Positions 6,397-47,742 of a DNA stretch of 64,000 nucleotides are shown piece by piece. The notes below the pieces were generated by a model, which had not been told where the DNA came from, did no database searches, and saw only the letters and a list, made by a program, of their open reading frames with translations. Source of the stretch: a virus; IMG/VR virus record IMGVR_UViG_3300044825_002891, positions 1 through 64,000 of that record. One strand, given 5' to 3'. Numbering within the stretch: the stretch's first letter is position 1; each line of letters begins with the position of its first letter. The position numbers and the translations under genes are program-made.

Positions 6397-6398
6397 TC

Positions 6399-10788: not shown

Positions 10789-11136
10789 GTGCCCGCCGGG
10801 TCGTACAACATTGTCTGCGACCAGGGCGCCACGTTTGGCCTGAACCTGACGTACGAGGACGCCAACGGCACGGCTGTGAATCTGACTGGCTACACAGCCC
10901 GAATGCAGGTGCGCTCCAAGGCTGACGCTGCTACCACGATTCTCAGCCTGACTTCGGGCAGCGGCATCACGCTTGGCGGCTCTGCCGGGACGATCGTAAT
11001 CAGCATCAGCGCGGCAACAACAGCCGGATTGACTGCTGGTGATTATGTTTACGATCTTGAGCTTGTCGCTCCCACCACCGCGGTAACTCGTCTTCTTCAG
11101 GGTCGCTTCAGAGTTTCCGCGGAGGTGACCCGGTGA
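10789..11136 (+). CDS. BppU-like Ig-fold structural/adaptor protein
   Basis: YNIVCDQGATF...NLTGYTARMQVR...YVYDLEL...RLLQG...EVT. Confidence 0.75.
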   Translation: MPAGSYNIVCDQGATFGLNLTYEDANGTAVNLTGYTARMQVRSKADAATTILSLTSGSGITLGGSAGTIVISISAATTAGLTAGDYVYDLELVAPTTAVTRLLQGRFRVSAEVTR

Positions 11137-11690
11137 CAAGAGTTGTAGTTACCGAAGACAAGAAATACGTTGTCGTTGACAAGCAGACGACAAACGTCCG
11201 CGTCGATGTTATCGAGCCAAGCGTCAAGGTCCAGGCCCCCGGGGTCGTCGGCCCTCCCGGCTCTCAGATTCTCTCTTCAAACGGCGCCCCAGACTCTGCT
11301 CTCGGTGTTATTGGGGACTTCTACCTCAACAAGACAACAAACGAGCTGTACGGCCCCAAGACTCAGGAAACTGGCTGGGGCACTCCTATCAATCTCGGCT
11401 CTGCGGAGTTCGAGAATCAGTTTGACCTTGACTCGCCCGAGGATGGTCAGGTCATCGAATATGACGCCGATCAGGACCTGTGGGTCCCGAAGCATATTCG
11501 ATATACGCATGTTCAGTCGGCCGCGACGAGCACATGGACAGTCAATCACAACCTTGGTATTCGCCCCGGCGGAGTCACGGTAGTGGACAGCGGCGAAAAC
11601 GTCGTATTTGGCGATGTGCTGTACGCGAATGACAACAGCCTGACAATCACCTTCTCTTCCGCTTTCGGCGGGAAGGTCTACCTTTCGTGA
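11133..11690 (+). CDS. virion fibre-associated protein
   Basis: GAP...G..GDFYL...LYGPK, and C-terminal YTHVQ...WTVNHNLG domain. Confidence 0.7.
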   Translation: MTRVVVTEDKKYVVVDKQTTNVRVDVIEPSVKVQAPGVVGPPGSQILSSNGAPDSALGVIGDFYLNKTTNELYGPKTQETGWGTPINLGSAEFENQFDLDSPEDGQVIEYDADQDLWVPKHIRYTHVQSAATSTWTVNHNLGIRPGGVTVVDSGENVVFGDVLYANDNSLTITFSSAFGGKVYLS

Positions 11691-11697
11691 GGATTCG

Positions 11698-12927
11698 ATG
11701 AGTAAGTTTCTCAACAACATCGACCTACAGAAGAACGAGATCCGGAACGCGAAGGTCCACGCCCTCGCTACCGATCCCTCGACTCCTGTACAGGGTCAGA
11801 TCTACTTCAACACGGCTGATGGCCGTCTGAAGGTCTACGACGGGTCTGCGTGGCGCTATGCCTCGGGCCTGTTCGATAACGCTGATATCTCGGCAAGCGC
11901 TGCGATTGCGCTCTCCAAGCTGGCGACCGACCCGCTGGCTCGCGCCAACCACACTGGCACGCAGACAGCCTCGACGATCTCCGACTTTGATACCCAGGTC
12001 CGCACCAGCCGTCTTGACCAGATGGCTCTTGCCGCGACCAATGTCAACCTGAACAGCCAGCGCATCACCGGCCTTGCTGATCCGGTCAACGCTCAGGATG
12101 CCGCCACCAAGAGCTACGTCGATGCGTTTGCCGTCGGCCTCGACCCCAAGCAGTCTGTGCGCGCGGCCACAACTGGCCCGATCACGCTCTCCGGCACCCA
12201 GACCATCGACGATGTCGTTCTGGTTGTTGGCAACCGCGTCCTGGTCAAGGATCAAGGCACAGGCTCTGAGAACGGCATTTACGTCGTTGCCTCTGGCGCG
12301 TGGTCGCGTTCGACCGATGCCGACACCGACGCCGAGGTTACGGCCGGTCTCTTCACGTTCGTTGAAGAAGGCACGGCGCACGCCAACTCCGGCTGGGTGC
12401 TTGCCACCGATAACCCGATCACGGTCGGCACCACGCCGCTGAGCTTCGTTCAGTTCTCCGGTGCCGGTCAGATCGATGCTGGCGATGGTCTTACCAAGAC
12501 AGGGAACCGCCTGGATGTCGTCGGCACCGCTGACCGCATCAGCGTTTCCGCCAACGCGGTTGACATCGCTACCAATTACGTCGGCCAGACGACTATCACC
12601 ACGCTTGGCACCGTCACCACGGGCACGTGGAACGGCACGCCGATCGGTGTCAGCTACGGCGGCACGGGTGCTACTGATGCCGCTGGCGCGAAGACGAACC
12701 TCGGGTTCATCACGCGCTACGCTGCCGATATCGGTGACAGCACAACCACCGACATCGTCATCACGCACAACCTGAACACTCGTGATGCGACCGTGCAGGT
12801 GCGCGAGGCTGGCTCGCCGTACGAGCAGGTCAACGTCGATGTCGAGTACACGACCACGAACACCGTGACGCTGCGCTTCGCCGTGGCCCCCGCGGTGAAC
12901 GCCTATCGCGCTATTGTGATGGGGTAA
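11698..12927 (+). CDS. virion fibre / structural protein
   Basis: GQIYFNT, RANHTGTQ, DAATKSYVD, KQSVRAATT...RVLVKDQ...NGIY, ITHNLNT. Confidence 0.8.
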   Translation: MSKFLNNIDLQKNEIRNAKVHALATDPSTPVQGQIYFNTADGRLKVYDGSAWRYASGLFDNADISASAAIALSKLATDPLARANHTGTQTASTISDFDTQVRTSRLDQMALAATNVNLNSQRITGLADPVNAQDAATKSYVDAFAVGLDPKQSVRAATTGPITLSGTQTIDDVVLVVGNRVLVKDQGTGSENGIYVVASGAWSRSTDADTDAEVTAGLFTFVEEGTAHANSGWVLATDNPITVGTTPLSFVQFSGAGQIDAGDGLTKTGNRLDVVGTADRISVSANAVDIATNYVGQTTITTLGTVTTGTWNGTPIGVSYGGTGATDAAGAKTNLGFITRYAADIGDSTTTDIVITHNLNTRDATVQVREAGSPYEQVNVDVEYTTTNTVTLRFAVAPAVNAYRAIVMG

Positions 12928-12936
12928 AGCAAGACT

Positions 12937-13341
12937 ATGGGCCGCACTAACGAAAAACTCTGGAAGCGCATCGTTGCTGACGTGAAAGCGGGCAGCAAGG
13001 GCGGCGACGCCGGAGAGTGGAGTGCGCGCAAGGCCCAGCTTGCTACTGCTAGATACAAGAAGGCCGGTGGTGGGTATTCCGGCCCCAAGACAGAAGCTCA
13101 GAAGTCACTGACCAAGTGGACCAAGGAAAAGTGGCGCACGAGCGACGGAAAGCCTTCTTCCAGGCCCGGCGGAAAGACTCGATATCTTCCCGACGCGGCC
13201 TGGAAGAAGCTTTCTCCGCAGGAGAAGGCCGCTACGAACAGGGCCAAGAAGACCGGAGACAAAGCTGGCAAGCAGTTTGTTTCCAACACAAAGGCGGCAA
13301 AGTCCGCAAGTAGATCTGTTAGGGGATCTAAGAAAAAGTAG
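12937..13341 (+). CDS. DUF5872-like basic protein
   Basis: GSKGG..GEWSARKAQL...YKKAGGGY, WTKEKW, RYLP..AW. Confidence 0.7.
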   Translation: MGRTNEKLWKRIVADVKAGSKGGDAGEWSARKAQLATARYKKAGGGYSGPKTEAQKSLTKWTKEKWRTSDGKPSSRPGGKTRYLPDAAWKKLSPQEKAATNRAKKTGDKAGKQFVSNTKAAKSASRSVRGSKKK

Positions 13342-13382
13342 CATAGCCCCGAGGGGCCACCAGAAAGGCAAAGACCGAGGTC

Positions 13383-15713
13383 ATGCCAAAAGTTCTATCT
13401 GCAGTACGAGCGCTACTCTTCGGCTCTGCCGGTTCGCAGGCAGTGGCCGTTGGCGTTTCCGGGGATACAAATCCCCGCCTGCGGATTGATGCTGGTGGAC
13501 GCCTCACATGGGGCACTGGCGCCGCGGCCGGGGATATCTACGCTGAGCGCAATGGCGCAAACTCGCTGCTTGTCTCTGGCGAGCTACTTGCTGACTCGTA
13601 TCAGGTTGATGTTGCCGCTACGCCAACAGGCGCCGTCGGCAAGCTGATCTGGAATGACACCGAGGGTACGCTCGATCTGGGTCTAAAGGGCGGGAATGTC
13701 ACGTTGCCCGTTGGCCAGACTCTTACGCAGCGCGTGACCAACACGACCGGTAACACCCTCGCCCGCGGCAAGGCCGTGCGCCTCGCGGGCGCCCAGGGCA
13801 ACCGCACCACGGTGGCCCTGGCCCAGGGGGACACCGACGCGAACTCCTCGAAGACCTTCGGACTCACGGCCGAGGCGATCAGCGATAGCCACTCCGGCTT
13901 CGTCATCACCGAGGGGCTCCTCACCGGGCTCGACACGAGCACCCTGACCGAGGGCGGCATCGTGTGGCTCTCGGCCACCACGGCCGGCGCCCTCACGAGC
14001 ACGATGCCCGACGCGCCGAATCACGGCGTGATGATGGGGCTGTGCGTGAAGTCGCACGCCTCGACCGGCATCATCCTCGTCAAGGTGCAGAACGGCTACG
14101 AGCTCGGCGAGCTCCACGACGTCAAGATCACCTCGCCCACCAACGGCCAGGTCCTGTCCTACGACGCGGCTCTCGGCTACTGGAAGAACGCCGCGGGCGG
14201 CGGGGGCGGCGGGGGCGCCAGCGTCAGCGTGGGCGACTCGGCCCCGGCCGGTCCCTCCGCGGGTGACCTCTGGTTCAACTCGGCCAACCTCAAGACCTAC
14301 ATCTACTACGACTCCTACTGGGTCGAGGTCGGGGGCGGCGCGGGTGGCGGCGGGGGCTCCTCGGTTACCACATCTGATACCGCCCCTACGAGCCCCAACC
14401 CCGGCGACGTGTGGTACGACTCGACCACGGGCCGGACCTACCTCTACTACGACTCGTTTTGGGTGGAGATGCGCTCCACGAGCGACCTCACCGTGGCGGG
14501 GCACACCGCGGAGCACGTGCGGGGCGGCAACGACGTGCTCGACGGCGACCGCCTTCAGGTGGACTACGTGCCGACCGCCTACACCCGCGACACGGCCTCC
14601 GCGGGCGGGGGCGCGGTCACCGACCTCACGGCCCACCTCGGCGGCATCGACGACCAGCTGATCGTGCTTGCCTCGGGACGCAACCGCATCGTGAACGGCG
14701 GCATACTGGTGAATCAGAGATATGGTGTCAACACCCAGACGGCGAGGACGGGGAGCAGGTTCCCCATCGCAGATCGCTTCTTCGGGTACGCAAACGGTGG
14801 CGGCTCGATCAACACCGTCACCACAGGCACAGTCACGCCGCCACCCCACGGGGGAAACTACTACCTTCAGGCGACGGTAAACGCCACCGACTCGTCTCTC
14901 GCCGCCTCGGACCTCTACAGCATCCATACCGAGGTGGAGGGCTTCTATCTCAACGGGCTCGGGTTTGGCTACAGCGCGCCGCCCTCCGTGACCCTGTCGT
15001 TCTACGTCTACAGCAGCGTCACCGGCACGTTTAGCCTCACGATGAGCAACGGCGTGCCCGTTGGTGACCGGTATTACACCACGTCATACACCATCAACGC
15101 CGCCAACACGTGGGAGCGCAAGGCGATCACCTTCGTCTCACCCACGACTGGGGTGTGGGACACCACGAGCTTGGTCCTCTCCATCCACTGGCCGCTGGCG
15201 GCTGGCTCCAACTTCATAAACCCGTACCCCACCAACTGGCAAAGTACGCCCGGCCCGTACATGATTACGGCCGCTCAGACCAACTTCATGGCCAACGCCG
15301 GAGCGGTCTTCCGCCTGACCGGCGTTCAGCTGGAGATCGGCTCTGACCCCACGCCCTTTGAGAACACCCGCTACGCTGAGGAGCTCCTGCGGTGCCAACG
15401 GTACTACCAGGTAACCGACTACTTTCAGGGCACCGCCGCAACCAGCTCCACCATTGTGGTGGTGGCCCCGGCACTGGTGCCGATGCGCGGCACTATCGTA
15501 CCCTCCATCGCGGGCACCACGTGGGCTCTGAGCGACAACTACGCGGGCGATGCCAACGCGTCCTCGCCCACGATGCCGAACATCTACGAATGTAGCTCGC
15601 GCGGCGCTCGCGTGGTCCTCGGCGGCTTTACGGGCCTCACAACCGGCCGCTACTACAACTCGCGGCCTAGCACCACCAGCCTCATCGGGCTGAGCGCCGA
15701 GGCCCTGTCCTAA
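13383..15713 (+). CDS. long modular fibre protein
   Basis: Cement-like beta domain, two GDxW...YYDSxWVE repeats, shared DGDRLQVDYVP module, C-terminal CBM-like domain (GVQLE...CQRYY). Confidence 0.8.
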   Translation: MPKVLSAVRALLFGSAGSQAVAVGVSGDTNPRLRIDAGGRLTWGTGAAAGDIYAERNGANSLLVSGELLADSYQVDVAATPTGAVGKLIWNDTEGTLDLGLKGGNVTLPVGQTLTQRVTNTTGNTLARGKAVRLAGAQGNRTTVALAQGDTDANSSKTFGLTAEAISDSHSGFVITEGLLTGLDTSTLTEGGIVWLSATTAGALTSTMPDAPNHGVMMGLCVKSHASTGIILVKVQNGYELGELHDVKITSPTNGQVLSYDAALGYWKNAAGGGGGGGASVSVGDSAPAGPSAGDLWFNSANLKTYIYYDSYWVEVGGGAGGGGGSSVTTSDTAPTSPNPGDVWYDSTTGRTYLYYDSFWVEMRSTSDLTVAGHTAEHVRGGNDVLDGDRLQVDYVPTAYTRDTASAGGGAVTDLTAHLGGIDDQLIVLASGRNRIVNGGILVNQRYGVNTQTARTGSRFPIADRFFGYANGGGSINTVTTGTVTPPPHGGNYYLQATVNATDSSLAASDLYSIHTEVEGFYLNGLGFGYSAPPSVTLSFYVYSSVTGTFSLTMSNGVPVGDRYYTTSYTINAANTWERKAITFVSPTTGVWDTTSLVLSIHWPLAAGSNFINPYPTNWQSTPGPYMITAAQTNFMANAGAVFRLTGVQLEIGSDPTPFENTRYAEELLRCQRYYQVTDYFQGTAATSSTIVVVAPALVPMRGTIVPSIAGTTWALSDNYAGDANASSPTMPNIYECSSRGARVVLGGFTGLTTGRYYNSRPSTTSLIGLSAEALS
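14502..14652 (+). repeat. shared ~150-bp fibre module, copy 1 of 4 (others ~16328-16477, ~18746-18895, ~20577-20726)
   Basis: HxxxHxxxGxDxxDGDRxxVDYVPxxYTR...TDLTAHLxG conserved at protein and DNA level. Confidence 0.85.
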
Positions 15714-16876
15714 TGGCCATCGACTTCCCCAACAGCCCCACCAACGGCCAGGAGTTCACCTCCGGCGGCACCACCTGGGTCTATGACGGCACCAAGTGGA
15801 ACGCCAAGACGGTCGCCGCGTACTCCAACGACGCCGCGCCCGTGGGGACGATCGTCAACTTCGCGGGCACCGTGGGCTCCATCCCCGCGGGCTGGCTCGC
15901 GTGCGACGGGGCGGCCATCTCCCGCACGACCTACGCCACGCTGTTCAGCACGATCGGTACCACCTACGGCGCGGGCAACGGCTCCACCACCTTCAACACG
16001 CCCGACATCGAGAGCACCTCGGGGGTGTTCATCATCCGCTGGACCACCACGCTCGGGGTGACGGCTACGGACTCGCTCTACGCCACCCCCGTGGGCGTGA
16101 TGATGACCTGGCCCACCACGTCGAGCTACCCCACGGGCTGGCTGCGGGCGGACGGCTCGGCGGTCTCCCGCACGAGCTACGCGGACCTCTTCGCGCTGAT
16201 CGGCACGACCTACGGGACGGGCAACGGCTCCACGACGTTCAACCTCCCCAACCTCGTCGAGACGGGCGGCCCGGTGACGCTGATCAAGGCCGTGCTCTCG
16301 GGCGGCCAGGAGCCCTCCACGATCGCCCACGCCGCGCGTCACATCCGCGGCGGCGCGGACATCATCGACGGGGACCGCGTGCAGGTGGACTACGTGCCCG
16401 CCAACTACACGCGCAACAGCGCGGCGTCTGGCGCCGGGGCCAACACCGATCTCACGGCGCACCTCGGCGGGATTGATCAGCTGTTCGGGCCATGGAGTTC
16501 CTGGACGACGTACACCATCGGCGGCTTCACGACGGGCAACGCCACCAAGGAGGGCAAGTACCTCCAGATGGGGAAGGTGGTGGCGTTCTGGACCAGGACC
16601 ACGCTGGGAAGCACCAGTGCCGTGACCGGCCAACTCACCATCTCGGTGCCCGTCGCGGCATCGACCTCGCACAATGGCGTGTTCAAGGGACACTTCTTTG
16701 ATAGTGGCACCGGTTTCCCACTCATGCAGCCATGGTTTGACGGCGCTGTGGTCAACCTCTACGCGGTCGGCTCCGCGGCGGCCTACGCGTCTGCCGCCGC
16801 CACCAGCTCAGCCGTTCCCATGACCTGGGCTACCGGCGACGCCTTCTACTGCTCTGGAATCTACGAGGCCGCCTAA
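15713..16876 (+). CDS. fibre protein with two tail-collar domains
   Basis: MAIDFPNSP start; two P.GWL..DG.A.SRT.YA.LF..IGTTYG.GNGSTTFN; YEAA tip. Confidence 0.85.
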   Translation: MAIDFPNSPTNGQEFTSGGTTWVYDGTKWNAKTVAAYSNDAAPVGTIVNFAGTVGSIPAGWLACDGAAISRTTYATLFSTIGTTYGAGNGSTTFNTPDIESTSGVFIIRWTTTLGVTATDSLYATPVGVMMTWPTTSSYPTGWLRADGSAVSRTSYADLFALIGTTYGTGNGSTTFNLPNLVETGGPVTLIKAVLSGGQEPSTIAHAARHIRGGADIIDGDRVQVDYVPANYTRNSAASGAGANTDLTAHLGGIDQLFGPWSSWTTYTIGGFTTGNATKEGKYLQMGKVVAFWTRTTLGSTSAVTGQLTISVPVAASTSHNGVFKGHFFDSGTGFPLMQPWFDGAVVNLYAVGSAAAYASAAATSSAVPMTWATGDAFYCSGIYEAA

Positions 16877-17919
16877 TGCCAGTCTTCGGCTTCGGACACG
16901 AGACCTGCACGAGCACCACCCGCCCGGCCACGCCGAGCCTCGGTCAGCTCGTCTACCAGACGGACACGGACGAGTACGTCAAGTACGTCACCGACGTGGA
17001 CGGCACGAACCGGTGGATGCAGGCCATCTACAAGCCCCACCGCCGCATCAACCTCAACGGCGACTTCCGCATCTGGCAGCGCGGCACGAGCCGCGGCTCA
17101 GGCGGTGGTGGCGCGACCACGTTCGCGGCCGACCGGTACTGCTTCGGCAACAACGGCGCCGCGGAGTTCGTGGCCACCCAGCAGGCCACGGGTCCCCGCG
17201 GCGACCTCCTCTACGCCATGCGCGTCGCCGCCAACGCCACCGTGACCAACGGGCTCAACGGCGTCCAGCACCTCATCGAGACCGCCGACACGATCCCCCT
17301 GCGCGGCCAGCGCCTGACCCTGAGCTTCTGGGTGCGAGGCAGCAAGAACGACTTCGCGGGGAATGCCTACGGCTTCGAGTCCGGCACCGCGGAGGCCAAC
17401 CCGGGCGTGGGCAACGGGCTCACCGGTGCCGCCTCGCTGGCCACGGGCACCGTCGCGGTGACGACCTCGTGGCAGAAGGTGGTCCTGACCTCGACCGGCA
17501 CGGTCGCGAACAACGCCGCGCTCATCCGGATCTCGCTCCCCCGTCCCACCAACTTCGTCAACGGTGACTGGATCGAGTACGCGGGCGTGCAGCTTGAGGT
17601 GGGCACCGCGCCGAGTGACTACGAGGTGCGCCTCCTCAGCGATGAGCTCGCGCGATGCCAGCGCTACTACGAGCAGGTGGCCCACGCCGGCCGCTACTAC
17701 TCCAACGACGGTTACTGGGGCATGAACTTCTCGTTCAAGGTGACCAAGCGCACCGCGAGTTACTCCATGGCGGTCGTGAGCACCGGCAACAGCTCCACGT
17801 TCTCGACGGTTACGGCCGTCCAGAACACCACCCAAGCGGCCAACTATCAGGCGAGCGGCCTCGCGGCAGGGATGTACTACACCTATGGTTACACGGTCGG
17901 CATCGACGCGGAGATCTAA
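16876..17919 (+). CDS. fibre/receptor-binding protein, CBM-like tip
   Basis: TSTTRPATPSLGQLVYQTDT N-module; NGDFRIWQRG...GVQLE...CQRYY. Confidence 0.8.
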   Translation: MPVFGFGHETCTSTTRPATPSLGQLVYQTDTDEYVKYVTDVDGTNRWMQAIYKPHRRINLNGDFRIWQRGTSRGSGGGGATTFAADRYCFGNNGAAEFVATQQATGPRGDLLYAMRVAANATVTNGLNGVQHLIETADTIPLRGQRLTLSFWVRGSKNDFAGNAYGFESGTAEANPGVGNGLTGAASLATGTVAVTTSWQKVVLTSTGTVANNAALIRISLPRPTNFVNGDWIEYAGVQLEVGTAPSDYEVRLLSDELARCQRYYEQVAHAGRYYSNDGYWGMNFSFKVTKRTASYSMAVVSTGNSSTFSTVTAVQNTTQAANYQASGLAAGMYYTYGYTVGIDAEI

Positions 17920-18491
17920 TGCCTAGATCCTTCTCCACCACCGGCACCACGATCGTGGACACCGCCGCAGACATCCCCACGGCCTCGGCGGCCTACGAGG
18001 GCGTCATGGTGTTCCAGAAGGACACCAACGAACTCAAGATCTGCGACGGGTCGAGCTGGATCAGCATGCTCAACACCGGCAACAACCCAATGGCTGCGTG
18101 GACGAGCTACAACCCGACTATCTCTCAGGGCTCTGCCACCAACATCTCCAAGACCATGGCCTACGCCGGATACATTACGCTCGGCAAGCTCGTGATCTGT
18201 AGCGCCAACATCAGCCTCACAGGGACAGGTCAAGCCAACAACGCGATTAAGGCTACGCTCCCGGTCCCTAAGACGATCGGTGTGTATCACGAGATCGGGT
18301 ACGGTAGTTACTTCGCAGCCGCTGGCGCGAAGTACGAACTACTAGTGTCCGACGACGCCTCAACCTCAGTGGTGCGGTTTCAGTATGCGCACAGGACCGA
18401 CGACCTCAATCTAGGTGGCGGCGGCAACTTTACGAGCGCCGTTGCAAACGGGCATGTTCTAAGCTTTACAGCAATCTACGAGGCCGCGTAA
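17919..18491 (+). CDS. short fibre/receptor-binding protein
   Basis: TAATG overlap; GVMVFQKDT N-module; WTSYNPT...YEAA tip. Confidence 0.75.
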   Translation: MPRSFSTTGTTIVDTAADIPTASAAYEGVMVFQKDTNELKICDGSSWISMLNTGNNPMAAWTSYNPTISQGSATNISKTMAYAGYITLGKLVICSANISLTGTGQANNAIKATLPVPKTIGVYHEIGYGSYFAAAGAKYELLVSDDASTSVVRFQYAHRTDDLNLGGGGNFTSAVANGHVLSFTAIYEAA

Positions 18492-19516
18492 TGGCAGTTG
18501 ACTTCCCCAACTCCCCCTCCGTCAACGACACGTTCACCTCGAACGGCAAGACGTTCGTGTGGACGGGCACGCGCTGGGATCTCCAGTCGTACACCGCCTC
18601 CAAGGGCTCCTTCTACACGGGCGACAGCGCCCCGGGAAGCCCCCTCACGGGCGATATCTGGTACGACACCTCCGTGGGCAAGACCTACATGCGCTACGAC
18701 TCGTACTGGGTCGAGGTCGGCAACTCCGGGGCCGTGCAGTCCACCCACGCGGCGCTGCACCGCAACGGCGGCACCGATCAGCTCGACGGCGATCGCCTGC
18801 ACGTGGACTACGTCCCTACGACCTACACGCGCAACGCCGCCGCCTCGGGGGCCACGGCGAGCACCGACCTGACGGCGCACCTCGACGGGATCAACACCCA
18901 CTTCCTGCGCTACCAGATCTCCGGGTCGGCCCCGTCGAGCCCCGTGACCGGCGCCCTGTGGCTCGACACCACGACCGGCCAGCTCAAGACCTTCTACGGC
19001 TCCACGTGGGTGTCCACGGGCTACCCCTCCGGCTCGGTCATCCAGACGGTGTGGAAGCGCAGCGACGTGCGCACCACCTACGCCTCGAACAACTCGGGCA
19101 ACGGCACGACGATCACCGAGCTCAACCTGACCATCACGCCGCGGTTCTCGAACTCCACGATCTTCTGCCAGTGGATGATCAACGGCGAGCTGCATCAGGA
19201 CAACGTGTTCCTGATCCACAAGGACGGCGCGGTGCAGACCAACCCCGCGGGCTACAACAACACGGTCGGCGGCAGGCACGTCGGCTACGCCTCCGGCTTC
19301 TACGACCAGAACGAGGACTCGACGCCGAGCAACTGGAAGCTCATGTACCTCGACAACGTCCTCGGCTCCACCGCCTCACGCACCTACGCGCCCGCGGTGC
19401 GCAGCTCGTCGGGCAGCAACTACACACTCTCGCTCAACCGCACCCTGAACGCCGCCTCGCAGGACGCCTACGAGAGCATGGTGTCGGTCGGCGTGGCCAT
19501 GGAGATCGCGGCATGA
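18491..19516 (+). CDS. fibre protein
   Basis: MAVDFPNSP start, shared module, GSVIQTV...ITP...MEIAA tip. Confidence 0.8.
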   Translation: MAVDFPNSPSVNDTFTSNGKTFVWTGTRWDLQSYTASKGSFYTGDSAPGSPLTGDIWYDTSVGKTYMRYDSYWVEVGNSGAVQSTHAALHRNGGTDQLDGDRLHVDYVPTTYTRNAAASGATASTDLTAHLDGINTHFLRYQISGSAPSSPVTGALWLDTTTGQLKTFYGSTWVSTGYPSGSVIQTVWKRSDVRTTYASNNSGNGTTITELNLTITPRFSNSTIFCQWMINGELHQDNVFLIHKDGAVQTNPAGYNNTVGGRHVGYASGFYDQNEDSTPSNWKLMYLDNVLGSTASRTYAPAVRSSSGSNYTLSLNRTLNAASQDAYESMVSVGVAMEIAA

Positions 19517-19950
19517 TCGAGAACACCCAGCTCGACTTCCCCTGCGTGGAGAACGCCCTGCACCGGCTCTGCCCCGGCGCGAGGTGGGCCGTCCGCTACG
19601 GCAGGACCGACGACGAGTACGAGATCGAGTGGATGGAGGAGGACGCGGAGCGGCCCTCCGACGAGGAGATCGCCGCCGCCATCGCGACCCTGGCCGAGAA
19701 CTGGGAGCTCCGCGACTACATCACCAAGCGCCGGGCCGCCTACCCGCCCCTCGCGGAGTTTGCCGACGCCTTCTTCTGGCTGGAGCAGGGCGACGACAGC
19801 AAGATGAGGCTGTACCTGGAGCGGATTGAGTTGGTCAAGCAGCGCTATCCTAAGCCTGAGACGGACGCGGTCGTCGTCGAGGTGACGCCGACGCCCGAGT
19901 ACGTGCACCGCGACCTGCCGCCCCAAGAGGGCGAGGAGCCCATCGCCTGA
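19513..19950 (+). CDS. XkdW-like / fibre assembly chaperone
   Basis: ATGA overlap; L.PGA.W...IEW...PS.EEI, RR.AYP....D...VK..YPK. Confidence 0.7.
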   Translation: MIENTQLDFPCVENALHRLCPGARWAVRYGRTDDEYEIEWMEEDAERPSDEEIAAAIATLAENWELRDYITKRRAAYPPLAEFADAFFWLEQGDDSKMRLYLERIELVKQRYPKPETDAVVVEVTPTPEYVHRDLPPQEGEEPIA

Positions 19951-21185
19951 TGGCCATCGACTTCCCGAACAGCCCCACCGACGGCCAGTCCTTCACCGCC
20001 GGGAACACGAAGTGGATCTACAGCGCGGCCGCCGGGAAGTGGAACATCGCGGCCCCCGAGACGCCCTCCACGACGGCGTTCGCCCCGATCGGGACGGTCA
20101 TCAACTACATGGGCGCGAGCCCGCCGAACGGCTGGATCCTCTGCAACGGGGCGAGCCTGAGCCGCTCCACCTACGCCAACCTATTCGCCGTCCTCGGCAC
20201 GGTGTTCGGGCAGGGGAGCAACCCGGGTAGCACGTTCGCGCTCCCGAACTTCATCGGCACCACCGGCATCTACATCATCCGGGCGACCGACGACAACGTG
20301 ACGGTGTCGAGCGCGGCCAACCTCCTGGCCATGCCGGTCGGCACCATGAGCCTCTTCGCGATGACCACGGTGCCCGCCGGGTGGGTGCGCTGCGACGGCC
20401 AGGCCCTGTCGCGCACGGGCTACGCCGACCTCTTCTCCGCGATCAGCACGACGTACGGGACCGGGGACGGCTCCACGACGTTCAACGTGCCGAACGTGGC
20501 GGGGTCGGGCACGGGCTCGCCCCTGTACTACATCAAGGCGATCCTCAGCGGCGACGCGCAGCCCGCGACCGTGGCCCACGCCACCTCGCACATCCGCACG
20601 GGCACCGACATCATCGACGGCGACCGGCTCCAGGTGGACTACGTTCCGTCGCGCTACACCCGCGACTCGTCGGCATCTGAGGCGGGCGCCACCACCGACC
20701 TGACCGCGCACCTCAAGGGGCTCGACAACCACTTTGAGCGCGTCCGGATCGACGCGAGCGGTAGGATCACGCTGCCCTACCAGCCCGCATTTCACGCCTA
20801 CCTCAACACCTCCGGCAACCCGGCGTCGGCCTCCCCGGTCGTCTATACCCAAACGCGCTTCAACATCGGCAGCCACTACTCAACGGCAACGGGTAGATTC
20901 ACGGCTCCCGTCGCGGGAGTTTACTTCTTCGCCGCGTCTGTCAACATGTACGGCAGCAATAGCACCGGCAGCTGCAACGTTAATATCTATAATGCGGCGG
21001 GCGTGGCTCAAGGAAGGATTGCGGGCGGTCGCACGCTAGCCGGTATAACAGGCGACGCCAACTGGACCGTCGCTGGCCTCTGGTACATGGCGGCTACGGA
21101 CTACGCTAGGGTCGAGATCACCGCATACGGCACTCACAGCGGTGGTCCGGACTACAATCAGTTCCAAGGCGCCCTGTTTAGCTAA
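19950..21185 (+). CDS. fibre protein, two collar domains and C1q-like tip
   Basis: MAIDFPNSP; collar repeats; QPAF...NIGSHYST.TGRFTAPVAGVYFF. Confidence 0.85.
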   Translation: MAIDFPNSPTDGQSFTAGNTKWIYSAAAGKWNIAAPETPSTTAFAPIGTVINYMGASPPNGWILCNGASLSRSTYANLFAVLGTVFGQGSNPGSTFALPNFIGTTGIYIIRATDDNVTVSSAANLLAMPVGTMSLFAMTTVPAGWVRCDGQALSRTGYADLFSAISTTYGTGDGSTTFNVPNVAGSGTGSPLYYIKAILSGDAQPATVAHATSHIRTGTDIIDGDRLQVDYVPSRYTRDSSASEAGATTDLTAHLKGLDNHFERVRIDASGRITLPYQPAFHAYLNTSGNPASASPVVYTQTRFNIGSHYSTATGRFTAPVAGVYFFAASVNMYGSNSTGSCNVNIYNAAGVAQGRIAGGRTLAGITGDANWTVAGLWYMAATDYARVEITAYGTHSGGPDYNQFQGALFS

Positions 21186-21898
21186 TGACCCGCTTCAAGA
21201 ACGGTCCCGGCAACACCCCTGCCTCTAGCCTTCCCGGCAATCCCTCCGCGGGCGAGGCGGTCTTCGACCCCAACGCCGCGAGCTTTCGCTACTACACGGG
21301 GAGCAGGTGGGAGGGGATCCCGCCGATCGGCATCGTGGAGCCCTACGCCGGGGCTAGCGCGCCGACGGGGTGGCTCCTCTGCGACGGCAGCGCCGTGAGT
21401 CGCTCCACCTACGCCGATCTCTTCGCCGTCATCGAGACCATCTACGGCGTGGGCAACAACTCGACGACCTTTAACCTGCCCGACCTCCGGGGGCGCGCGA
21501 TCCACGGCCAGGACGTGATGCACGGGACCCCGGCCAACCGGCTCACGACCCTGAACGCCGCGATCGGAACGGCGGGCGGCAGCCAGTACCTGCAGGTGCA
21601 CACGCACAACTACTCGAAGAGCGGCACCTCGGGCAACGACTTCCCGGACCACGCGCACCAGTGGACCCTCGCCTCCGCGGGCAACGCCCAGGGCACGGGT
21701 GACCTCCCGTTCCGCGGCCACAACTACTGGGACGGGGGCTTCCGCTCCGGGGGTACGTCCTGGCCCGGCTACGGCGGCGGGGTGGGCGTGCGCCACACCC
21801 ACACCTTTAGCTTCTATGGCAATACCGACAACGTCGGCTCGGGCGGCGCCCACAACGTGCCCCCCACCCGTGTCTTCAACTTCATCATCAAGCACTAG
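21185..21898 (+). CDS. short fibre with collar and HxH needle
   Basis: Collar domain, NLPDLRGR, HTH/HAH/HTH, ends FIIKH. Confidence 0.85.
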   Translation: MTRFKNGPGNTPASSLPGNPSAGEAVFDPNAASFRYYTGSRWEGIPPIGIVEPYAGASAPTGWLLCDGSAVSRSTYADLFAVIETIYGVGNNSTTFNLPDLRGRAIHGQDVMHGTPANRLTTLNAAIGTAGGSQYLQVHTHNYSKSGTSGNDFPDHAHQWTLASAGNAQGTGDLPFRGHNYWDGGFRSGGTSWPGYGGGVGVRHTHTFSFYGNTDNVGSGGAHNVPPTRVFNFIIKH

Positions 21899-21900
21899 CC

Positions 21901-22644
21901 ATGGCTGTCTTCGGCATCGGATACGAGGTGGTGACCAGCACCACGCGCCCCGCGAGCCCCTCGAACGGGCAGGTCATCTACGAGACCGACACGCAGACCC
22001 ACAAGTACTACGACTCGGTGGCGGGCTCCTGGCAGCCGCTGGTGCCGACGGGCATGGTCAAGGCGTTTGCGGGCCGCATCGCCCCCACGGGCTGGCTGCT
22101 CTGCGCGGGCACGGCGGGCACGGCGGTGACGCAGGCCGCCTACCCTGACCTCTGGCGCACGCTCACGTCCAACGGCACCTCCTACCCGTACGGGGGCTCC
22201 GGCACGACCACCTACACGCCCGACCTGCGCGGGCGGGCCGTTCACGGGCTTGAGTCCATGGGCGGCGGCGGGGCCCTGGGCATCGTGGACAGCGTGGGCA
22301 CGACGCTGGGTGGCACCGGTGGGACGGAGTTGCCGCCAGCCCACGCTCACGGCATGGCCAACAACGTCAACAGCTCCAACGAGAACACCTACACCGGTCA
22401 CGTGTGGGTGCTGGGGGGTAACGGCGGTGCGCTGGGCGCTGGCGATCTCCCCCACCGTGGCTTCTACGGCTGGGACGGCAACTTTGCCACGTGGGGCGCT
22501 ACGAGCTTCGGCTACAACGCTGGTGCGCAGCGTCACACGCACACCTTCTCGTTCAGCGGCACCTCGACCGGCCACAACCTCAACGGCGGGGACCAGCAGA
22601 ACCTCGCCCCCTGCGTCGTCATGAACTACATTGTGAAGTACTGA
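21901..22644 (+). CDS. short fibre with collar and HxH needle
   Basis: TSTTRPASP.NGQVIYETDT, PDLRGR, HAH/HTH, ends NYIVKY. Confidence 0.85.
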   Translation: MAVFGIGYEVVTSTTRPASPSNGQVIYETDTQTHKYYDSVAGSWQPLVPTGMVKAFAGRIAPTGWLLCAGTAGTAVTQAAYPDLWRTLTSNGTSYPYGGSGTTTYTPDLRGRAVHGLESMGGGGALGIVDSVGTTLGGTGGTELPPAHAHGMANNVNSSNENTYTGHVWVLGGNGGALGAGDLPHRGFYGWDGNFATWGATSFGYNAGAQRHTHTFSFSGTSTGHNLNGGDQQNLAPCVVMNYIVKY

Positions 22645-23393
22645 TGCCGACCGACGCCGTATTTGGACAGGGTCACGAGACCATGACGAGGGCCGAGGCG
22701 CGAGCCATCGCCTCGCCCGTCACGGGCCAGCTCGTGTTCGAGACAGACACCCGTACCTTTACGTGGTACACCGGCTCGGGCTGGACCGGCCTGATCCCGC
22801 CGGGCACCATCTCGGCGCACACCCACACCGACGAGCCCCTCGGCGGTTGGCTCCTGTGTCGCGGCCAGACGGTCTCGCGCTCCACCTACGCCGACCTCTT
22901 TACCGCGATCGGCACGCAGTACAACACCGGGGGCGAGGCTGGCACGGACTTTCGGCTTCCCGACCTGCGCGGCAGGCGCCCGGCGGGTGTTGACAACCTC
23001 GGCGGCTCGGCCGCTAGCCGCCTCAACTTCACCGGCGCCACGAACCCCGGCACCGCCCTCGGCAGCAAGGACATGCCGCAGCACCTCCACTCCTACGGCG
23101 CGTACGGGACGACCGGCAACGACTCCCCCGACCACGCCCACCAGTGGCCGCTCTGCTACACCCAGGGCGGGCGCGACGGCAACGACAGCCCCGCCCGCTC
23201 CATGTACGGGTGGGACGGCAACTTCCGCACCGGCTGGAACGCCAACGCCCAGTACGGTGGCGCCACGTCGCGCCCACACCAGCAGAACATCGCCTGGACC
23301 GGGACGAACGACAACGCCCTCGGGGGCACCGGCGGCATGACCAACGCCAACATGCCACCGTTTATGATGCTGACCTACATGATAAAGTACTAG
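22644..23393 (+). CDS. short fibre with collar and HxH needle
   Basis: TGATG overlap; GQLVFETDT, FRLPDLRGR, ends YMIKY. Confidence 0.85.
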   Translation: MPTDAVFGQGHETMTRAEARAIASPVTGQLVFETDTRTFTWYTGSGWTGLIPPGTISAHTHTDEPLGGWLLCRGQTVSRSTYADLFTAIGTQYNTGGEAGTDFRLPDLRGRRPAGVDNLGGSAASRLNFTGATNPGTALGSKDMPQHLHSYGAYGTTGNDSPDHAHQWPLCYTQGGRDGNDSPARSMYGWDGNFRTGWNANAQYGGATSRPHQQNIAWTGTNDNALGGTGGMTNANMPPFMMLTYMIKY

Positions 23394-23403
23394 GGAGGAT
23401 TTG

Positions 23404-23748
23404 ATGTCCACCACCACCGCCAAGATCACGTGCCACAACCCCGTCACGGGCGAGGTCGTGGAGAACGTCACGTTCCAGATGTTCTACAACATGCAGTTCG
23501 TAGACGGCCGCAAGATCATCTACGTGAACGGCACCGCTACGTTTGAGCTGGATGACGCTAATCAGGTCATCGGCGTTGACATGCTGCCGTTTCGGCCTCA
23601 GACCGAGAGCCCCATCGAGCACGGCCCGATCGACCCCATGACGGGCATCGCCCTCAACGACGTGGTGCCTGGGGACGAGGGGTACCCCACGGAGCCCGGC
23701 CCCGACGCCGTGTACCCGCCCGGGGCCGTACCGGCCGACGAGGTGTAA
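23404..23748 (+). CDS. hypothetical protein (possible fibre chaperone)
   Basis: GGAGG SD; lies inside the fibre array. Confidence 0.6.
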   Translation: MSTTTAKITCHNPVTGEVVENVTFQMFYNMQFVDGRKIIYVNGTATFELDDANQVIGVDMLPFRPQTESPIEHGPIDPMTGIALNDVVPGDEGYPTEPGPDAVYPPGAVPADEV

Positions 23749-23751
23749 GCA

Positions 23752-24405
23752 ATGCCTAGGGCATATGCGGGCCTCGGCATGACGACCGGGCTCGCGGCCG
23801 ATCGCGCTGCCCTGTCGAGTCCCGTCGCGGGCCAGCAGTTCTATGAGACGGACACTGGCATCATGTACTGCTATACGGGCTCGGCATGGCGCGCGGTGTC
23901 GGCAACGACCGCAGCCACCGGGGGTGTGCTGCGAGTTGTACAGGCCGTCAAGACCGATACCTTTGCCAGCACCCCTGGCGCTCTATGGACCAACGTGGTT
24001 GGCCTCTCGGTGAGCATCACACCCTACAGCAGCTCCAGCAAGTTCCTGGTGACCGTGGACCTTAAGGGGTCTGGCGCAGAGAGCGCCACGACGATTCGCT
24101 CACGTCTGGTGCGCGATGGCAACCCGATCTACGTGGGTGATGCGGCTAGCAGCCGCCCCCGCTCGCTCTCCATGAGCTACGGCGGCAACACGTCTAGTGA
24201 CGGGGCCAAGTTTTCGGTGCATCAGATGGGTGGCACCTTTCTCGACTCGCCCAATACGGCAGCGCAGATCACGTATGCCGTGCAAATCGGCGGTGACACC
24301 AACAACCTCAACATTTTCGTAAATCGGACTGTAAACGACAGGGACAACGCCTACTACGACGGCCGCTGTGCGTCCTCCCTCACGGTCATGGAGCTAGCCG
24401 CATAG
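23752..24405 (+). CDS. short fibre/receptor-binding protein
   Basis: GQQFYETDT N-module; VLRVVQA...GLSVSITP.SSSSK...MELAA tip. Confidence 0.8.
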   Translation: MPRAYAGLGMTTGLAADRAALSSPVAGQQFYETDTGIMYCYTGSAWRAVSATTAATGGVLRVVQAVKTDTFASTPGALWTNVVGLSVSITPYSSSSKFLVTVDLKGSGAESATTIRSRLVRDGNPIYVGDAASSRPRSLSMSYGGNTSSDGAKFSVHQMGGTFLDSPNTAAQITYAVQIGGDTNNLNIFVNRTVNDRDNAYYDGRCASSLTVMELAA

Positions 24406-24440
24406 GCAGGCGTCCGTCACGCAGGCTATAACTTCCCGTC

Positions 24441-25217
24441 ATGGGAAGGGGCATCACGATCTACTGGTCGCAGGGCGAGGACGAGGAGGGTCTGCCGTTC
24501 AACCGGCAGCTGCTCTACCTCCCGCCCACCAACCTCTACAAGGACCTCCTCCGGCGCCAGAACCCGGCGGTCGCTAGCCGCCCCAAGGCCCAGAGCGGCC
24601 CGCTACTCGGGTCGTCCTTCTACATGTGCCCCGCGGTGCGGGGCAAGATGTCGCGCATCTACTTCATCCCCAACCCGGTGGAGACCCGGGTGCAGATCCG
24701 GGACTTCGAGCTGCGACCGGAGACCGGGTCCGGCGTGCCCCTGACGAGCATGCGCGTCAACTCGATGGTGGACACGCTGCACGTGCGCTCCGACCTCACG
24801 TGGTACTTCTTCGCGGACGAGCCCCTGGAGGTCTCGTTCACCTCGCCCTACTTCCACGCCCTCGACTACCTGCGCCTCATGCACCTGCCCCCCGCCACCT
24901 TCGACATCGGGCAGTGGCTCCGCACCTTCAACGTCGAGTACATCTTTCAGCACCGGGACGCCGACCTCGTGATCCACGAGGGCGACCCGCTCGTGTACCT
25001 GGAGACGCACACCGAGCGCCCGGTGCGCTTCGTGCGCTTTGAGTACACGCCGGAGATCGGCGCCCTCGCCCACGCTTGCGCGGCGGCCCCCGGCGTGCTC
25101 GGACGCTGGCGACCGCTCGCTGACCGCTACGCGCGGTTCCGCAGGACGCAGATGCGGGAGACGGTCCTGCGCCACATCTCGGCCAACGTGATCGGGGAGA
25201 GCGATGCGACGGCGTAA
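24441..25217 (+). CDS. DUF6065-like protein (leaderless)
   Basis: MCPAV...P, SPYFH, FDIGQW.R..N, I.EGDPL; TAACTT 6 nt before ATG. Confidence 0.6.
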   Translation: MGRGITIYWSQGEDEEGLPFNRQLLYLPPTNLYKDLLRRQNPAVASRPKAQSGPLLGSSFYMCPAVRGKMSRIYFIPNPVETRVQIRDFELRPETGSGVPLTSMRVNSMVDTLHVRSDLTWYFFADEPLEVSFTSPYFHALDYLRLMHLPPATFDIGQWLRTFNVEYIFQHRDADLVIHEGDPLVYLETHTERPVRFVRFEYTPEIGALAHACAAAPGVLGRWRPLADRYARFRRTQMRETVLRHISANVIGESDATA

Positions 25218-25926: not shown

Positions 25927-25938
25927 CGGCATACCTCA

Positions 25939-26002
25939 TACGATGCTGTTAGTAGCGTGAACCTATTGAGGAGGGGTATTCTCAATAGGAAGGCGCTCCT
26001 TC
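25939..26002 (+). promoter_or_regulatory. putative head-operon promoter and structured leader
   Basis: TACGAT 25939-25944; hairpin CCTATTGAGGA/TTCTCAATAGG; GAAGG/CCTTC hairpin over the SD. Confidence 0.45.
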
Positions 26003-46676: not shown

Positions 46677-47197
46677 TGACAAGAAACATTCAGAGATCTG
46701 ATTTTCTTGACATCTTTAAAAGCACAAACACCGTCGTAGACGATGTCACTCGTCGCAATCCCAATGTGCTCGTATCAAACCCCACCCGAAACACGACAAC
46801 GGGTGCCGTTGAGAATCGCGCCATTACGATCACCACACTAGCGCCAGCTTGGTACGAGGTTGTTGTGCTCAACCAGACTATGGCTGTCTTTGGTGGGCCA
46901 ATCGAGATTCGTTCCAGGGTCAAGGTCACTGCGATCGCCAGCAATACATACCTAAACCTGTCTTTTGGCGTTGACGGAGCGGAGGTCACGGGCAACCGAT
47001 ACGGCCTCGCAAGAATCGACTCGCTCGACTTCAACCCGGTTCTTGAGTACAGCCACATCGTGACCGGCATTCCGGCAGGGACACACAAGTTCTCTATTTT
47101 CGCCAGCGTAGAGTCTAGGTCTGGCAGTGGCTCGGGGTTTTCCGCAACCCTGACTCAAGGCATTGCTGAGCGCATCATCGTCAAAGAGGTCAAGTAA
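46676..47197 (+). CDS. minor tail protein
   Basis: Beta-rich; TGIPAGTH. Confidence 0.55.
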   Translation: MTRNIQRSDFLDIFKSTNTVVDDVTRRNPNVLVSNPTRNTTTGAVENRAITITTLAPAWYEVVVLNQTMAVFGGPIEIRSRVKVTAIASNTYLNLSFGVDGAEVTGNRYGLARIDSLDFNPVLEYSHIVTGIPAGTHKFSIFASVESRSGSGSGFSATLTQGIAERIIVKEVK

Positions 47198-47742
47198 TGG
47201 GCTGGACAACACCCGCAACGTGGGCTAGCGGTGACTGGAATCTCCAGATCCGCGACAACCTCCAGTACCTATACCAGGACCTGATTCCGGCAGGCACAAT
47301 CATGGCCTACTGCTCGTCTTCTCCGCCGACGGGTTTCCTCTTGTGCAACGCAACGGCGGTAACCAACGTCGCCCCGTACACCAACCTATATGCTGTGCTA
47401 CCAGGTAGCGGCACGAAGTACACGCCGGACCTTCGCGATCGTTTCATTGTCGGCGCGGGAAGCTCTTACGCGAACACCAATACTGGCGGCGCCGCTTCCC
47501 AAACACACAGCCACACCGAGGGAAACCTTACAGCCCGATATTTGATGGGCAGCAATGGCGTCAACTATTACCAGGATCGCGGCACAAGCGGCTGGTATAC
47601 AACAGCTGTGTCCGGCAACAACTACAGCGGCTCTGTTCAGGGTCCGCTTGGAAGCGGCGCTGCTGTGGCTGGCTCTACTGGCGACGTGACACTAGACAAC
47701 CGTCCGCCCTACTACGCACTAACGTACATCATCAAGTATTGA
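47197..47742 (+). CDS. tail fibre with collar domain
   Basis: MGWTTPATW, P.GTI...P.GFLLCN, TPDLRDRFIVGAG, NRPPYYAL.YIIK. Confidence 0.85.
   Translation: MGWTTPATWASGDWNLQIRDNLQYLYQDLIPAGTIMAYCSSSPPTGFLLCNATAVTNVAPYTNLYAVLPGSGTKYTPDLRDRFIVGAGSSYANTNTGGAASQTHSHTEGNLTARYLMGSNGVNYYQDRGTSGWYTTAVSGNNYSGSVQGPLGSGAAVAGSTGDVTLDNRPPYYALTYIIKY

Follow-up and report, generated by a model that had tools for sequence, protein, structure and literature searches.

A fibre-gene array with conserved N-terminal modules and exchangeable tips in an uncultured freshwater phage

The virus genome IMGVR_UViG_3300044825_002891, an IMG/VR record of 89,131 bp that carries direct terminal repeats and is rated complete, contains a long row of short fibre genes in which a few conserved N-terminal modules are joined to a variety of tips. 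We analysed bases 1-64000 of this record (the window, 64,000 nucleotides), in which the fibre locus occupies positions 10789-24405. Three tip types recur within the locus as homologous pairs, tips are exchanged on conserved N-modules across the population of related environmental loci, and in one natural variant of the locus itself a tip has been replaced. An earlier note on this DNA had described a combinatorial fibre array at this place; the observation is real and goes beyond chance, and its interpretation was right in part. We propose, with a probability of about 0.6, that 10789-24405 is one translationally coupled late operon encoding the host-adhesion arsenal of an 89-kb freshwater siphovirus-type phage, and we infer that its fibres are trimers which are present in the virion, dock there and bind receptors.

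Modules and tips of the fibre genes

Between 13383 and 24405, ten fibre open reading frames (ORFs) follow one another on the + strand (starting at 13383, 15713, 16876, 17919, 18491, 19950, 21185, 21901, 22644 and 23752; genes are named below by their start positions), and the same interval holds two small ORFs at 19513-19950 and 23401-23748. The earlier note had counted nine fibre genes and two putative chaperones; the two small ORFs stand, and the fibre ORFs number ten. The locus begins upstream of this interval, at 10789, with three extra fibre-locus genes (10789, 11133 and 11698).

Two classes of N-terminal module open most of the array proteins. NtA (MAxDFPNSP..GQ.FT..G..W.Y.G.KW) is found at the start of g15713, g18491 and g19950, which are the three of four H-module genes (see below) for which a MAxDFPNSP start had been reported, and NtB (...TSTTRPASP..GQxIYETDT...) opens g16876, g17919, g21901, g22644 and g23752. 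Hidden Markov models (HMMs) of both modules were built from non-window sequences only, and the best of 880 shuffled window proteins set the noise ceiling at 9.0 bits. The NtA model scored 62.6, 56.3 and 42.3 bits in the three window proteins, and the NtB model scored 61.4 bits in g21901, 54.9 in g16876, 36.5 in g22644, 32.6 in g23752 and 29.4 in g17919. At 6.2 bits, g21185 lies inside the shuffle noise, and its membership in NtB is therefore unsupported. The second class as first proposed thus keeps 16876, 21901, 22644 and 23752 together with its weak case 17919, and loses its other weak case, 21185.

An alignment of the two classes (hhalign E 2.6e-5, probability 75%) reveals a common core, a hairpin-type motif of the form P.SP..G(Q).(Y/F)...T....Y.G..W, and each class has its own conserved leader of ~20 residues before this hairpin. 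The core also occurs internally, at aa 284-314 and 323-363 of g13383, aa 146-175 of g18491 and aa 24-53 of g11698, where an NtB-type hairpin (aa 24-51) scores 13.9 bits; in the anchor fibres of two related environmental loci (L099 and L091) it forms five tandem copies. Given this alignment and the internal copies, the 'two docking chemistries' of the earlier note are better read as two N-terminal variants of one motif. The N-module motif strings did not occur in the open-access papers searched, which means only that they are not spelled out there.

Tips were compared by Smith-Waterman alignment against 300 shuffles per pair, with six cross-type pairs as controls. All three pairs expected from the claim that three tip types occur once in each class proved homologous, with z-scores of 10.1 for CQRYY (g13383/g16876), 5.5 for YEAA (g15713/g17919) and 5.4 for MExAA (g18491/g23752); none of the 300 shuffles reached the real scores, and the cross-type controls gave z-scores of -0.6 to 1.1. 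In line with this, the C-terminal 300 positions of phrog_4492 are hit by g13383 (5e-43) as well as g16876 (3.7e-37), and the end of phrog_6942 by g18491 (5.4e-19) as well as g23752 (4e-14). The pairs are distant, the CQRYY pair sharing 45% identity over just a 44-aa BLASTP stretch. The label 'CBM-like' that had been given to the CQRYY tip could not be verified: there was no Pfam match at E<=0.1, and PDB sequence searches gave no match either for g13383 or for a CQRYY-tip profile of six sequences, and 'carbohydrate binding' appears as a depositor label in cyanophage records only.

For the MExAA tip, a family profile of 58 sequences matches residues 479-658 of orf22 (PDB 9efk, E 1.2e-40), and g18491 alone found no match among PDB sequences. 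In the Legionella podophage LME-1, orf22 is the tail fibre, present as six trimers per tail, with its distal part unmodelled in the map according to the accessible part of the source (PMC12407071). The likeness is confined to this distal domain, which in LME-1 sits on a T7-type fibre and whose fold is unseen in the map, as far as that part of the source goes. ORFs like the small g19513 are linked to this tip: 21 of 29 unique examples directly follow a MExAA-tip ORF, and 21 of 71 unique MExAA-tip ORFs are followed by such an ORF. This fits g19513 as a tip-specific assembly partner, presumably with a chaperone role. The second small ORF, g23401, has one homologue in the same place after a collar gene (L008/L049) and is possibly a partner or chaperone, a weakly supported assignment.

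Of the seven Collar domains (PF07484) in the array, g15713 and g19950 have two each and g21185, g21901 and g22644 one each, with 38-135 bits in these five proteins against a cut-off of 24. The C1q-like tip assigned to g19950 was confirmed by Pfam C1q (PF00386) at aa 280-337 (40.8 bits, cut-off 23.7) and by PDB matches to adiponectin and C1q down to 5.5e-10. In g21185, g21901 and g22644, HxH motifs follow the collar, and they may correspond to the metal-binding HxH needle of T4 gp12. The similarity to gp12 (PDB 1ocy) is weak, reaching E 0.041 for g22644, and the proteins differ in build: 237-249 aa here, with an NtB-type front end in g21901 and g22644, against a 527-aa baseplate fibre in T4.

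The H module, a unit of ~65 aa, is present as earlier described in g13383, g15713, g18491 and g19950, and its four copies align with 25 invariant columns and a mean column identity of 69%. It is not an N-terminal class or docking module, as had been suggested. All four copies are internal (aa 366-431 of g13383, nt 14478-14675; aa 199-262 of g15713, nt 16307-16498; aa 78-143 of g18491, nt 18722-18919; aa 202-268 of g19950, nt 20553-20753), they stand directly before a tip or a hairpin, and tandem copies occur elsewhere, as expected of a generic shaft repeat. A search of 1.84 billion representative proteins with the H profile returned 1126 proteins at E<=1e-3, 514 at <=1e-10 and 56 at <=1e-30. 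Many of these are multi-copy, with a maximum of 16 matched stretches in one 2196-aa protein, and retrieved examples consist of head-to-tail ~60-aa units of the form HA..H..GG.D.IDGD.LDIDW.P.NYTP...EA...D.LTAHL.GID (long tandem arrays in P0158, the 352-aa P0162 and P0166, with 16, 4 and 4 matched stretches). The repeat had no Pfam-A family in the copy searched, and its best PDB sequence match, at E 0.15, was judged to be chance. It is a candidate new domain family, an uncharacterised fibre building block, and its invariant His and Asp residues may point to metal binding on the fibre axis. The idea of the H module as a live recombination hinge in this genome found no support: DNA identity among the copies is 64-72%, and the one natural replacement seen sits at an N-module/tip junction without an H module.

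From these parts the individual genes, all on the + strand, are composed as follows. The 776-aa 'anchor' fibre g13383 (13383..15713; phrog_9729, phrog_4492) consists of an N-domain (aa 1-285) that is kept at the head of arrays in other loci, two hairpins, the H repeat and a CQRYY tip (aa 430-776). It is followed by g15713 (15713..16876; Pfam Collar 1e-39) with NtA, two Collar domains, H repeat and YEAA tip, by g16876 (16876..17919) with NtB and CQRYY tip, and by g17919 (17919..18491), in which an NtB of the MP/MAKSF subtype is joined to a YEAA tip. Next, g18491 (18491..19516) carries NtA, hairpin, H repeat, a further hairpin and MExAA tip, its 145-aa neighbour g19513 (19513..19950) matches phrog_9114 (5.2e-12), and g19950 (19950..21185; Pfam Collar 1.7e-39, C1q 3e-10) combines NtA, two Collar domains and H repeat with the C1q-like tip. 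Three genes with a single Collar domain and a His-rich needle come next: g21185 (21185..21898; Collar 7.7e-24), which has a divergent N-terminus and a BLASTP match to g22644 (3.5e-50), and the NtB-headed g21901 (21901..22644; Collar 1.5e-9) and g22644 (22644..23393; Collar 3.6e-17). The row ends with the 115-aa small ORF g23401 (23401..23748), which has no PHROG match, and with g23752 (23752..24405), NtB plus MExAA tip.

The gene junctions include seven 1-nt stop-start overlaps (TAATG/TGATG) and one ATGA overlap, and a promoter and terminator scan of 8000-27000 gave no signal above shuffles; the locus therefore reads as one coupled operon. Its sole sizeable intergenic gap contains a GC-rich hairpin (13343-13360), 42 nt before g13383, which scored terminator-like on the - strand. 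In composition the array stands apart. Across an island at 13383-25217, which comprises the fibre genes, the two small partner ORFs and g24441, GC content at third codon positions (GC3) reaches 0.85-0.96, with the exceptions of g17919 and g23752 (0.76). Most other genes lie at 0.54-0.77, those of the tail-tip block at 0.59-0.66 and the major capsid protein (MCP) gene at 0.86. Foreign origin, expression bias and recombination-linked GC bias are all possible sources of this island. Paralogous modules within the array are 62-78% identical at the DNA level and are therefore old paralogues or separate acquisitions, not recent copies. In a scan of the whole genome, no array module other than Collar was found elsewhere.

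Related loci and tip exchange in the environment

Parts of the array are contained in 20 freshwater metagenome runs from 9 studies. Among IMG/VR sequences, the H profile drew 24 loci, 17 of which have a Collar-Collar-H fibre followed by one to three NtB genes, with three or four fibre genes in each and often a g19513-like gene. One NtB subtype matched 279 IMG/VR stretches, from which 80 loci were kept, and a total of 110 loci was scanned with the module HMMs of the window. One fibre-module ORF was found in 24 loci, two in 12, three in 42, four in 9, five in 3 and six in 5, and larger sets of seven, eight, nine, ten, eleven and twelve in 3, 3, 3, 1, 4 and 1 loci, respectively. The window itself has 13 in the same scan. 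Since arrays of 9-12 ORFs recur in 9 of the 110 loci, some of them near-duplicates (L091, L116 and L108 have near-identical layouts), its size is not unique, and the earlier description as unusually large, judged against those loci only, is weakened.

The large arrays resemble the window in their upstream part. Homologues of g10789, g11133 and g11698, with 33-44% identity, lead the arrays of L070, L076, L089, L090, L099 and L100, and homologues of g11133 and g11698 only those of L061, L091, L102, L103, L106, L108 and L116; next in these large arrays comes an anchor fibre with the g13383 N-domain. On the 49.6-kb contig L099 (array at 3091-18410), a portal gene and two ORFs are followed by a p132-like gene with two fibres and by an anchor with five hairpins, and the array ends in about twelve small NtA/NtB fibres interleaved with ~100-aa genes. 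Several of the small fibres of L099 have glycine-rich tips of the GGGGAGG type. By its gene content, the window looks like a union of two module types that are separate elsewhere, the trio-plus-anchor arrays and the triplets led by a Collar-Collar-H fibre.

Tip exchange on shared N-modules is extensive in this material. We clustered the tips of 137 unique N-module proteins (36 NtA, 101 NtB) from the window and the environmental loci by single linkage, with ORF starts approximated, and obtained 45 tip clusters, ten of which were found with both classes. Of these clusters, 23 are joined to the main NtB subtype (76 members) and 19 to the main NtA subtype (27 members), and N-modules are 82-87% identical where the tips are unrelated. 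In thirteen homologues of g17919 the likeness is confined to its first <=30%, with 60-84% identity there and a different sequence beyond.

An exchange was also observed within the locus itself. Contigs of four independent freshwater runs (X4-X7) were aligned to 8001-27000. A 1287-nt contig of X6, at depth 10, covers 17618-18049 with 4 differences and 18491-18763 with 9 differences, and between these stretches has 582 other letters in place of the 441 of the window. In this variant g17919 retains its N-module and has its tip replaced, and the adjoining parts of its neighbours, the end of g16876 and the start of g18491, are still present; in X4 and X5 a contig likewise ends at 18025. Relatives without tip exchange, which the earlier note had named as counter-evidence, are therefore not what this near-identical lake population offers, and its claim of interchangeable tips on shared N-modules holds both for the tip clusters and for this replacement. 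Both flanks of the locus lie on long contigs with 0-1 differences in X4-X7; the array is fragmented there, to which we gave no weight, and array parts that lack long contigs are not evidence of absence. Three further joints were not used (15750>17054 and 14423>18694, with sides of 20-21 letters, and 10344>19053, with no side or contig figure).

Candidate docking sites and competing explanations

The proposed adhesion operon 10789-24405 encodes one p132-like Ig collar protein, twelve fibre-type proteins that are presumed to be trimeric, two small putative tip partners and one unrelated basic protein. A short fibre is built from a ~45-aa NtA or NtB module, optional shaft pieces (a T4-gp12-type collar domain and a ~60-aa His/Asp-rich H repeat), and one tip of at least five types (CQRYY, YEAA, MExAA, C1q-like, and collar plus His needle). 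The N-module would fix each fibre to a common particle site, for which a T5-like collar made of g10789 subunits and the two larger fibres, g11698 and g13383, are candidates, and the tips would bind differing cell-surface glycans or proteins.

The first gene of the locus, g10789 (10789..11136, + strand), encodes a 115-aa Ig-like protein with matches to phrog_1084 (1.4e-31) and phrog_3304 (2.2e-15), the latter labelled 'L-shaped tail fiber protein assembly'; among PHROGs, p132 is the family to which it is related. A profile of its own family (A5, nine sequences) matches PDB 8hqz_Q (7.9e-5) and T5 p132 (7qg9_R, 3e-4), and also 26dk_M 'Structural protein' (8.3e-11). Directly downstream of g10789 lie g11133, g11698 and g13383. 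The 185-aa short fibre g11133 (11133..11690, + strand; phrog_34633, phrog_21918 and phrog_16122 match aa 121-184) has a short collagen-like stretch, a hairpin-like motif and a C-terminal Ig-like 'HNLG' domain common to g11698, and its homologues adjoin g11698-like genes in 13 loci. The 409-aa fibre g11698 (11698..12927, + strand; phrog_2647 7.7e-81) consists of an N-terminal hairpin motif, a central domain and a C-terminal Ig-like domain, and has homologues in actinophages and in the cyanophage P-SS2. The lysine-rich 134-aa product of g12937 (12937..13341, + strand; phrog_14910, phrog_17747) is not fibre-like; a homologue with 78% identity lies at L009:3318-3725, on a contig that otherwise shares only fibre modules.

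In T5, as described in the accessible parts of Linares et al. 2023 (PMC10038345; PDB 7qg9, 8hqz), a p132 dodecamer forms a collar round the tail tube, and the L-shaped fibre is grafted into this collar by roughly its first 50 residues. Here as there, a p132-family Ig-like gene directly precedes the fibre gene or genes (p132 then ltf in T5), and the fibre N-terminus reported in those parts is as long as an NtA or NtB module. T5 differs in that each collar holds three copies of a single fibre species and a dedicated p140 ring is present, a protein at which no search was aimed here; about twelve fibre species follow the collar gene in the present locus, and p132-like genes accompany a minority of N-module loci. 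By analogy, T5 p132/pb1 is the best precedent for the role that the ~45-aa N-module could have.

Other phages with several receptor-binding proteins (RBPs) share the principle of a conserved N-terminal part and an exchangeable receptor-binding part, to go by the accessible portions of the reports on Klebsiella KP32/K11/KP34 dual RBPs (PMC13352976), Ackermannviridae TSP1-4 (PMC11414711) and LtfA/LtfB of the T5-like phage DT57C (PMC4728585). In those portions, these systems comprise two to four RBPs, mostly enzymatic tailspikes, in phages of Gram-negative hosts. Unlike them, the present locus has ten to twelve short lectin-, TNF- or needle-type fibres with two N-module classes and a different sequence vocabulary, in an uncultured freshwater siphovirus; as a primary RBP with a branching domain for the others, g13383 and g11698 would be the candidates. 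No KP32 or CBA120 anchor or branching family was found among the Pfam and PHROG matches, with no direct comparison made to KP32 or CBA120 proteins. The 'metaviromic islands' of marine phages likewise contain C1q, carbohydrate-binding and lectin RBP candidates as hypervariable host-recognition genes, with a conserved N-terminal part and a variable tip in metagenome recruitment (Mizuno et al. 2014, PMC3909814); in the part of that paper available to us, they are single genes beside the tail fibre of pelagiphage-like podoviruses and not a 12-gene array with N-module classes. Distinct from known multi-RBP systems are the scale, with ten to twelve short fibres in one coupled operon, the two N-module classes and the H repeat, as well as the recurrence of the array as a movable super-module in many uncultured freshwater phages.

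Several findings weigh against an integrated adhesion apparatus with a common docking site. In 28 loci of unique architecture whose first N-module gene is preceded by at least 6 kb of sequence, no single socket gene travels with the N-modules: p132-like genes are present in 6 of the 28, g11133-like in 8, g11698-like in 10, the anchor N-domain in 9 and Collar-Collar-H fibres in 8, and a g11698-like or Collar-Collar-H fibre in 18. Counted over all N-module loci, p132-like genes occur in 19 of 103, and in 6 of the 43 with at least 6 kb upstream. Judged by T5, a collar with three fibres would moreover be too few for about twelve species. The locus is situated between head-associated genes and far from Dit/Tal (42508-44643), and g11698 (aa 155-272 and 338-409) matches 9nx3_A, a 'Capsid decoration protein', at E 2.5e-15. 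Finally, the hairpin core doubles as a shaft repeat and may thus be a folding unit instead of a plug, and the array's own codon usage could mean recent acquisition.

One alternative built on these points is that the fibres are borne by the capsid or neck, as head fibres or decoration, and serve as general adhesins, holding the phage close to cells or particles without triggering infection. Apart from the two-domain match to 9nx3, this is favoured by the PHROG label 'head decoration' for g11698 and the label 'capsid decoration protein' for its P-SS2 homologue, by the position of the array upstream of head genes (a 661-aa ORF at 26515 and the MCP at 28934) and 18 kb from Dit/Tal, by L099, in which the homologous array follows the portal gene, and by a tail block that has its own collar protein with tail-like codon usage. 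This protein, g47197 (47197..47742, + strand; 181 aa, Pfam Collar 4.2e-7, GC3 0.66), lies at the end of the tail-tip block and holds the last of the eight Collar domains of the genome; it has neither an NtA nor an NtB module and lies outside the array, yet is related to it. However, g10789 is of the same family as p132, the tail collar protein of T5, the MExAA tip is found in LME-1 as the distal part of what is a true tail fibre, and the collar-needle proteins resemble T4 gp12. The 'head decoration' names are depositor or PHROG labels; in the open-access papers searched, none relevant to 9NX3 was found, nor any statement on the virion location of Yvonnetastic gp56 ('virion protein'). In addition, the position of the modules varies among loci, from after the portal gene (L099) to after an exonuclease (L091) and before TerL (L103). 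We consider a capsid or neck location unlikely on balance.

Equally, the N-modules might serve as nuclei of folding or trimerisation, of a beta-prism type like the Mtd N-domain, with attachment, if any, through other surfaces, or with the large fibres alone attached and the small proteins acting in some other way. The recurrence of the hairpin core within shafts and the lack of a consistently co-occurring socket gene would agree with this, as would weak matches to Mtd_N (PF18454; E 0.002 and 0.008), which stay below the cut-off (18.4 bits in g17919 against 26.3). A predicted-structure Atlas entry for g17919 (pTM 0.63) gave leads only, to PTL_trimer (PF26696), Mtd_N and Sipho_Gp37 clusters. Yet the ~20 residues before the hairpin (MTIFGSGH.VVTSTTRPASP type) are N-terminal only and as conserved as the hairpin itself, and the high identity of N-modules that carry unrelated tips is what a shared binding partner would produce. 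There are also precedents for such N-terminal peptides in T5 pb1 and in KP32-type dual RBPs, to the extent covered by the available text of PMC10038345 and PMC13352976. A purely structural role of the N-modules is improbable in our view.

It is a lesser prospect still that the array is largely cargo, a recent, fast-turnover island of alternative cassettes of which each lineage uses only a few while the rest are coming or going. In its favour are the distinct codon usage across 13383-25217 and the natural variant with one tip replaced; in the four runs, long contigs are near-identical to the flanks 8001-13628 and 23410-27000 around the fragmented array, and 52-69% of the aligned contigs continue into unlike sequence. 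The combination in the window of two module types that are separate elsewhere points the same way. All ten ORFs are, however, intact, tightly coupled and free of internal stops, the divergence of the paralogous modules marks them as old copies, not recent duplicates, and the arrays of 9-12 ORFs in other loci suggest that large sets are maintained. A diversity-generating (DGR/Mtd) system was discarded, since the 89-kb genome has no reverse transcriptase (no RVT_1 match) and Mtd_N stays below its cut-off.

Genomic setting and meaning of the array

Among the genes identified in the window, the MCP gene at 28934 matches phrog_29, a tape measure protein of 2604 aa (34694-42508) matches phrog_6090 and others, and Dit at 42508 and a Tal-like protein at 43363 come next. 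Genes for DnaB (49819), DNA polymerase (52952) and TerL (60967-62760) lie further downstream, TerL thus ~32 kb downstream of the capsid gene. The 661-aa ORF at 26515 has no PHROG or Pfam match, and scaffold or protease is a guess only; no portal gene was identified among the ORFs scanned in the window. Because no tail sheath was seen among the ORFs scanned, the phage is probably of siphovirus type, and if tape measure and tail length are related as they are in other siphoviruses, its tail would be very long. Since homologues of g11698 and matches to the Collar domains are mostly found in actinophages, we infer an actinobacterial host.

Upstream of the fibre locus, by ~2.4 kb, lies a glycosyltransferase of the GT1/GT4 type (7225-8400), and a 773-aa protein with two glycosyltransferase matches is encoded elsewhere in the genome (65252-67573 of the full record; L029:1252-3570); glycosylation of the virion or fibres may be possible. 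The stretch 8400-9661 has no convincing ORF on the + strand and an unchecked 398-aa ORF on the - strand. Of g9661 (9661-10788, phrog_2859), the N-terminal ~100-186 aa recur near fibre arrays in L068, L071, L073, L094, L095 and L097. On the other side of the array, most homologues of g25204 (25204-25926, phrog_7084) among cultured viruses are from haloarchaeal tailed viruses, with 46 of 56 records named Halorubrum or Haloarcula, and 7 records are from cyanophages.

In the databases searched, the phage as a whole had no close relative that could be examined. A megablast of 10789-25000 against INPHARED returned a 106-nt match only, g25204 alone had no match in IMG/VR, and the MCP has remote matches only, at 22-30% identity. 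Contigs with P0122, a homologue of g17919 with 68% identity, were all <=2.4 kb in the JGI scan, and its IMG/VR matches ran through the N-module only or were partial. P0229, the representative-library match nearest to g18491 in length and position of the best stretch, matched IMG/VR through the tip only.

The number of fibres raises a bolder possibility, which we regard as distinctly unlikely. The locus might encode more fibre species than there are docking sites per N-class, so that paralogues with the same plug compete and each virion carries a random subset of tips; in a variant of this idea, fibres sit at many sites along the tail or on the capsid and make a 'hairy' particle. Either way, the H repeat would be a new and widespread shaft fold, possibly metal-binding. 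If this were true, a burst would be a phenotypically mixed population, a form of bet-hedging across host surface types, and fibres that outnumber their docking sites would provide a natural case of mixed virions.

Of all parts of uncultured phage genomes, those for host recognition are hardest to predict, and the array and its relatives provide a readable grammar of them for many freshwater phages: two ~45-aa front ends mark the receptor-binding genes, and everything after them is the swappable tip. This can be used for RBP annotation in metagenomes and for following tip exchange in natural populations, one swap having been caught between lake metagenomes, and it supplies a defined set of small domains, in proteins of 190-250 aa, for binding and structural studies.

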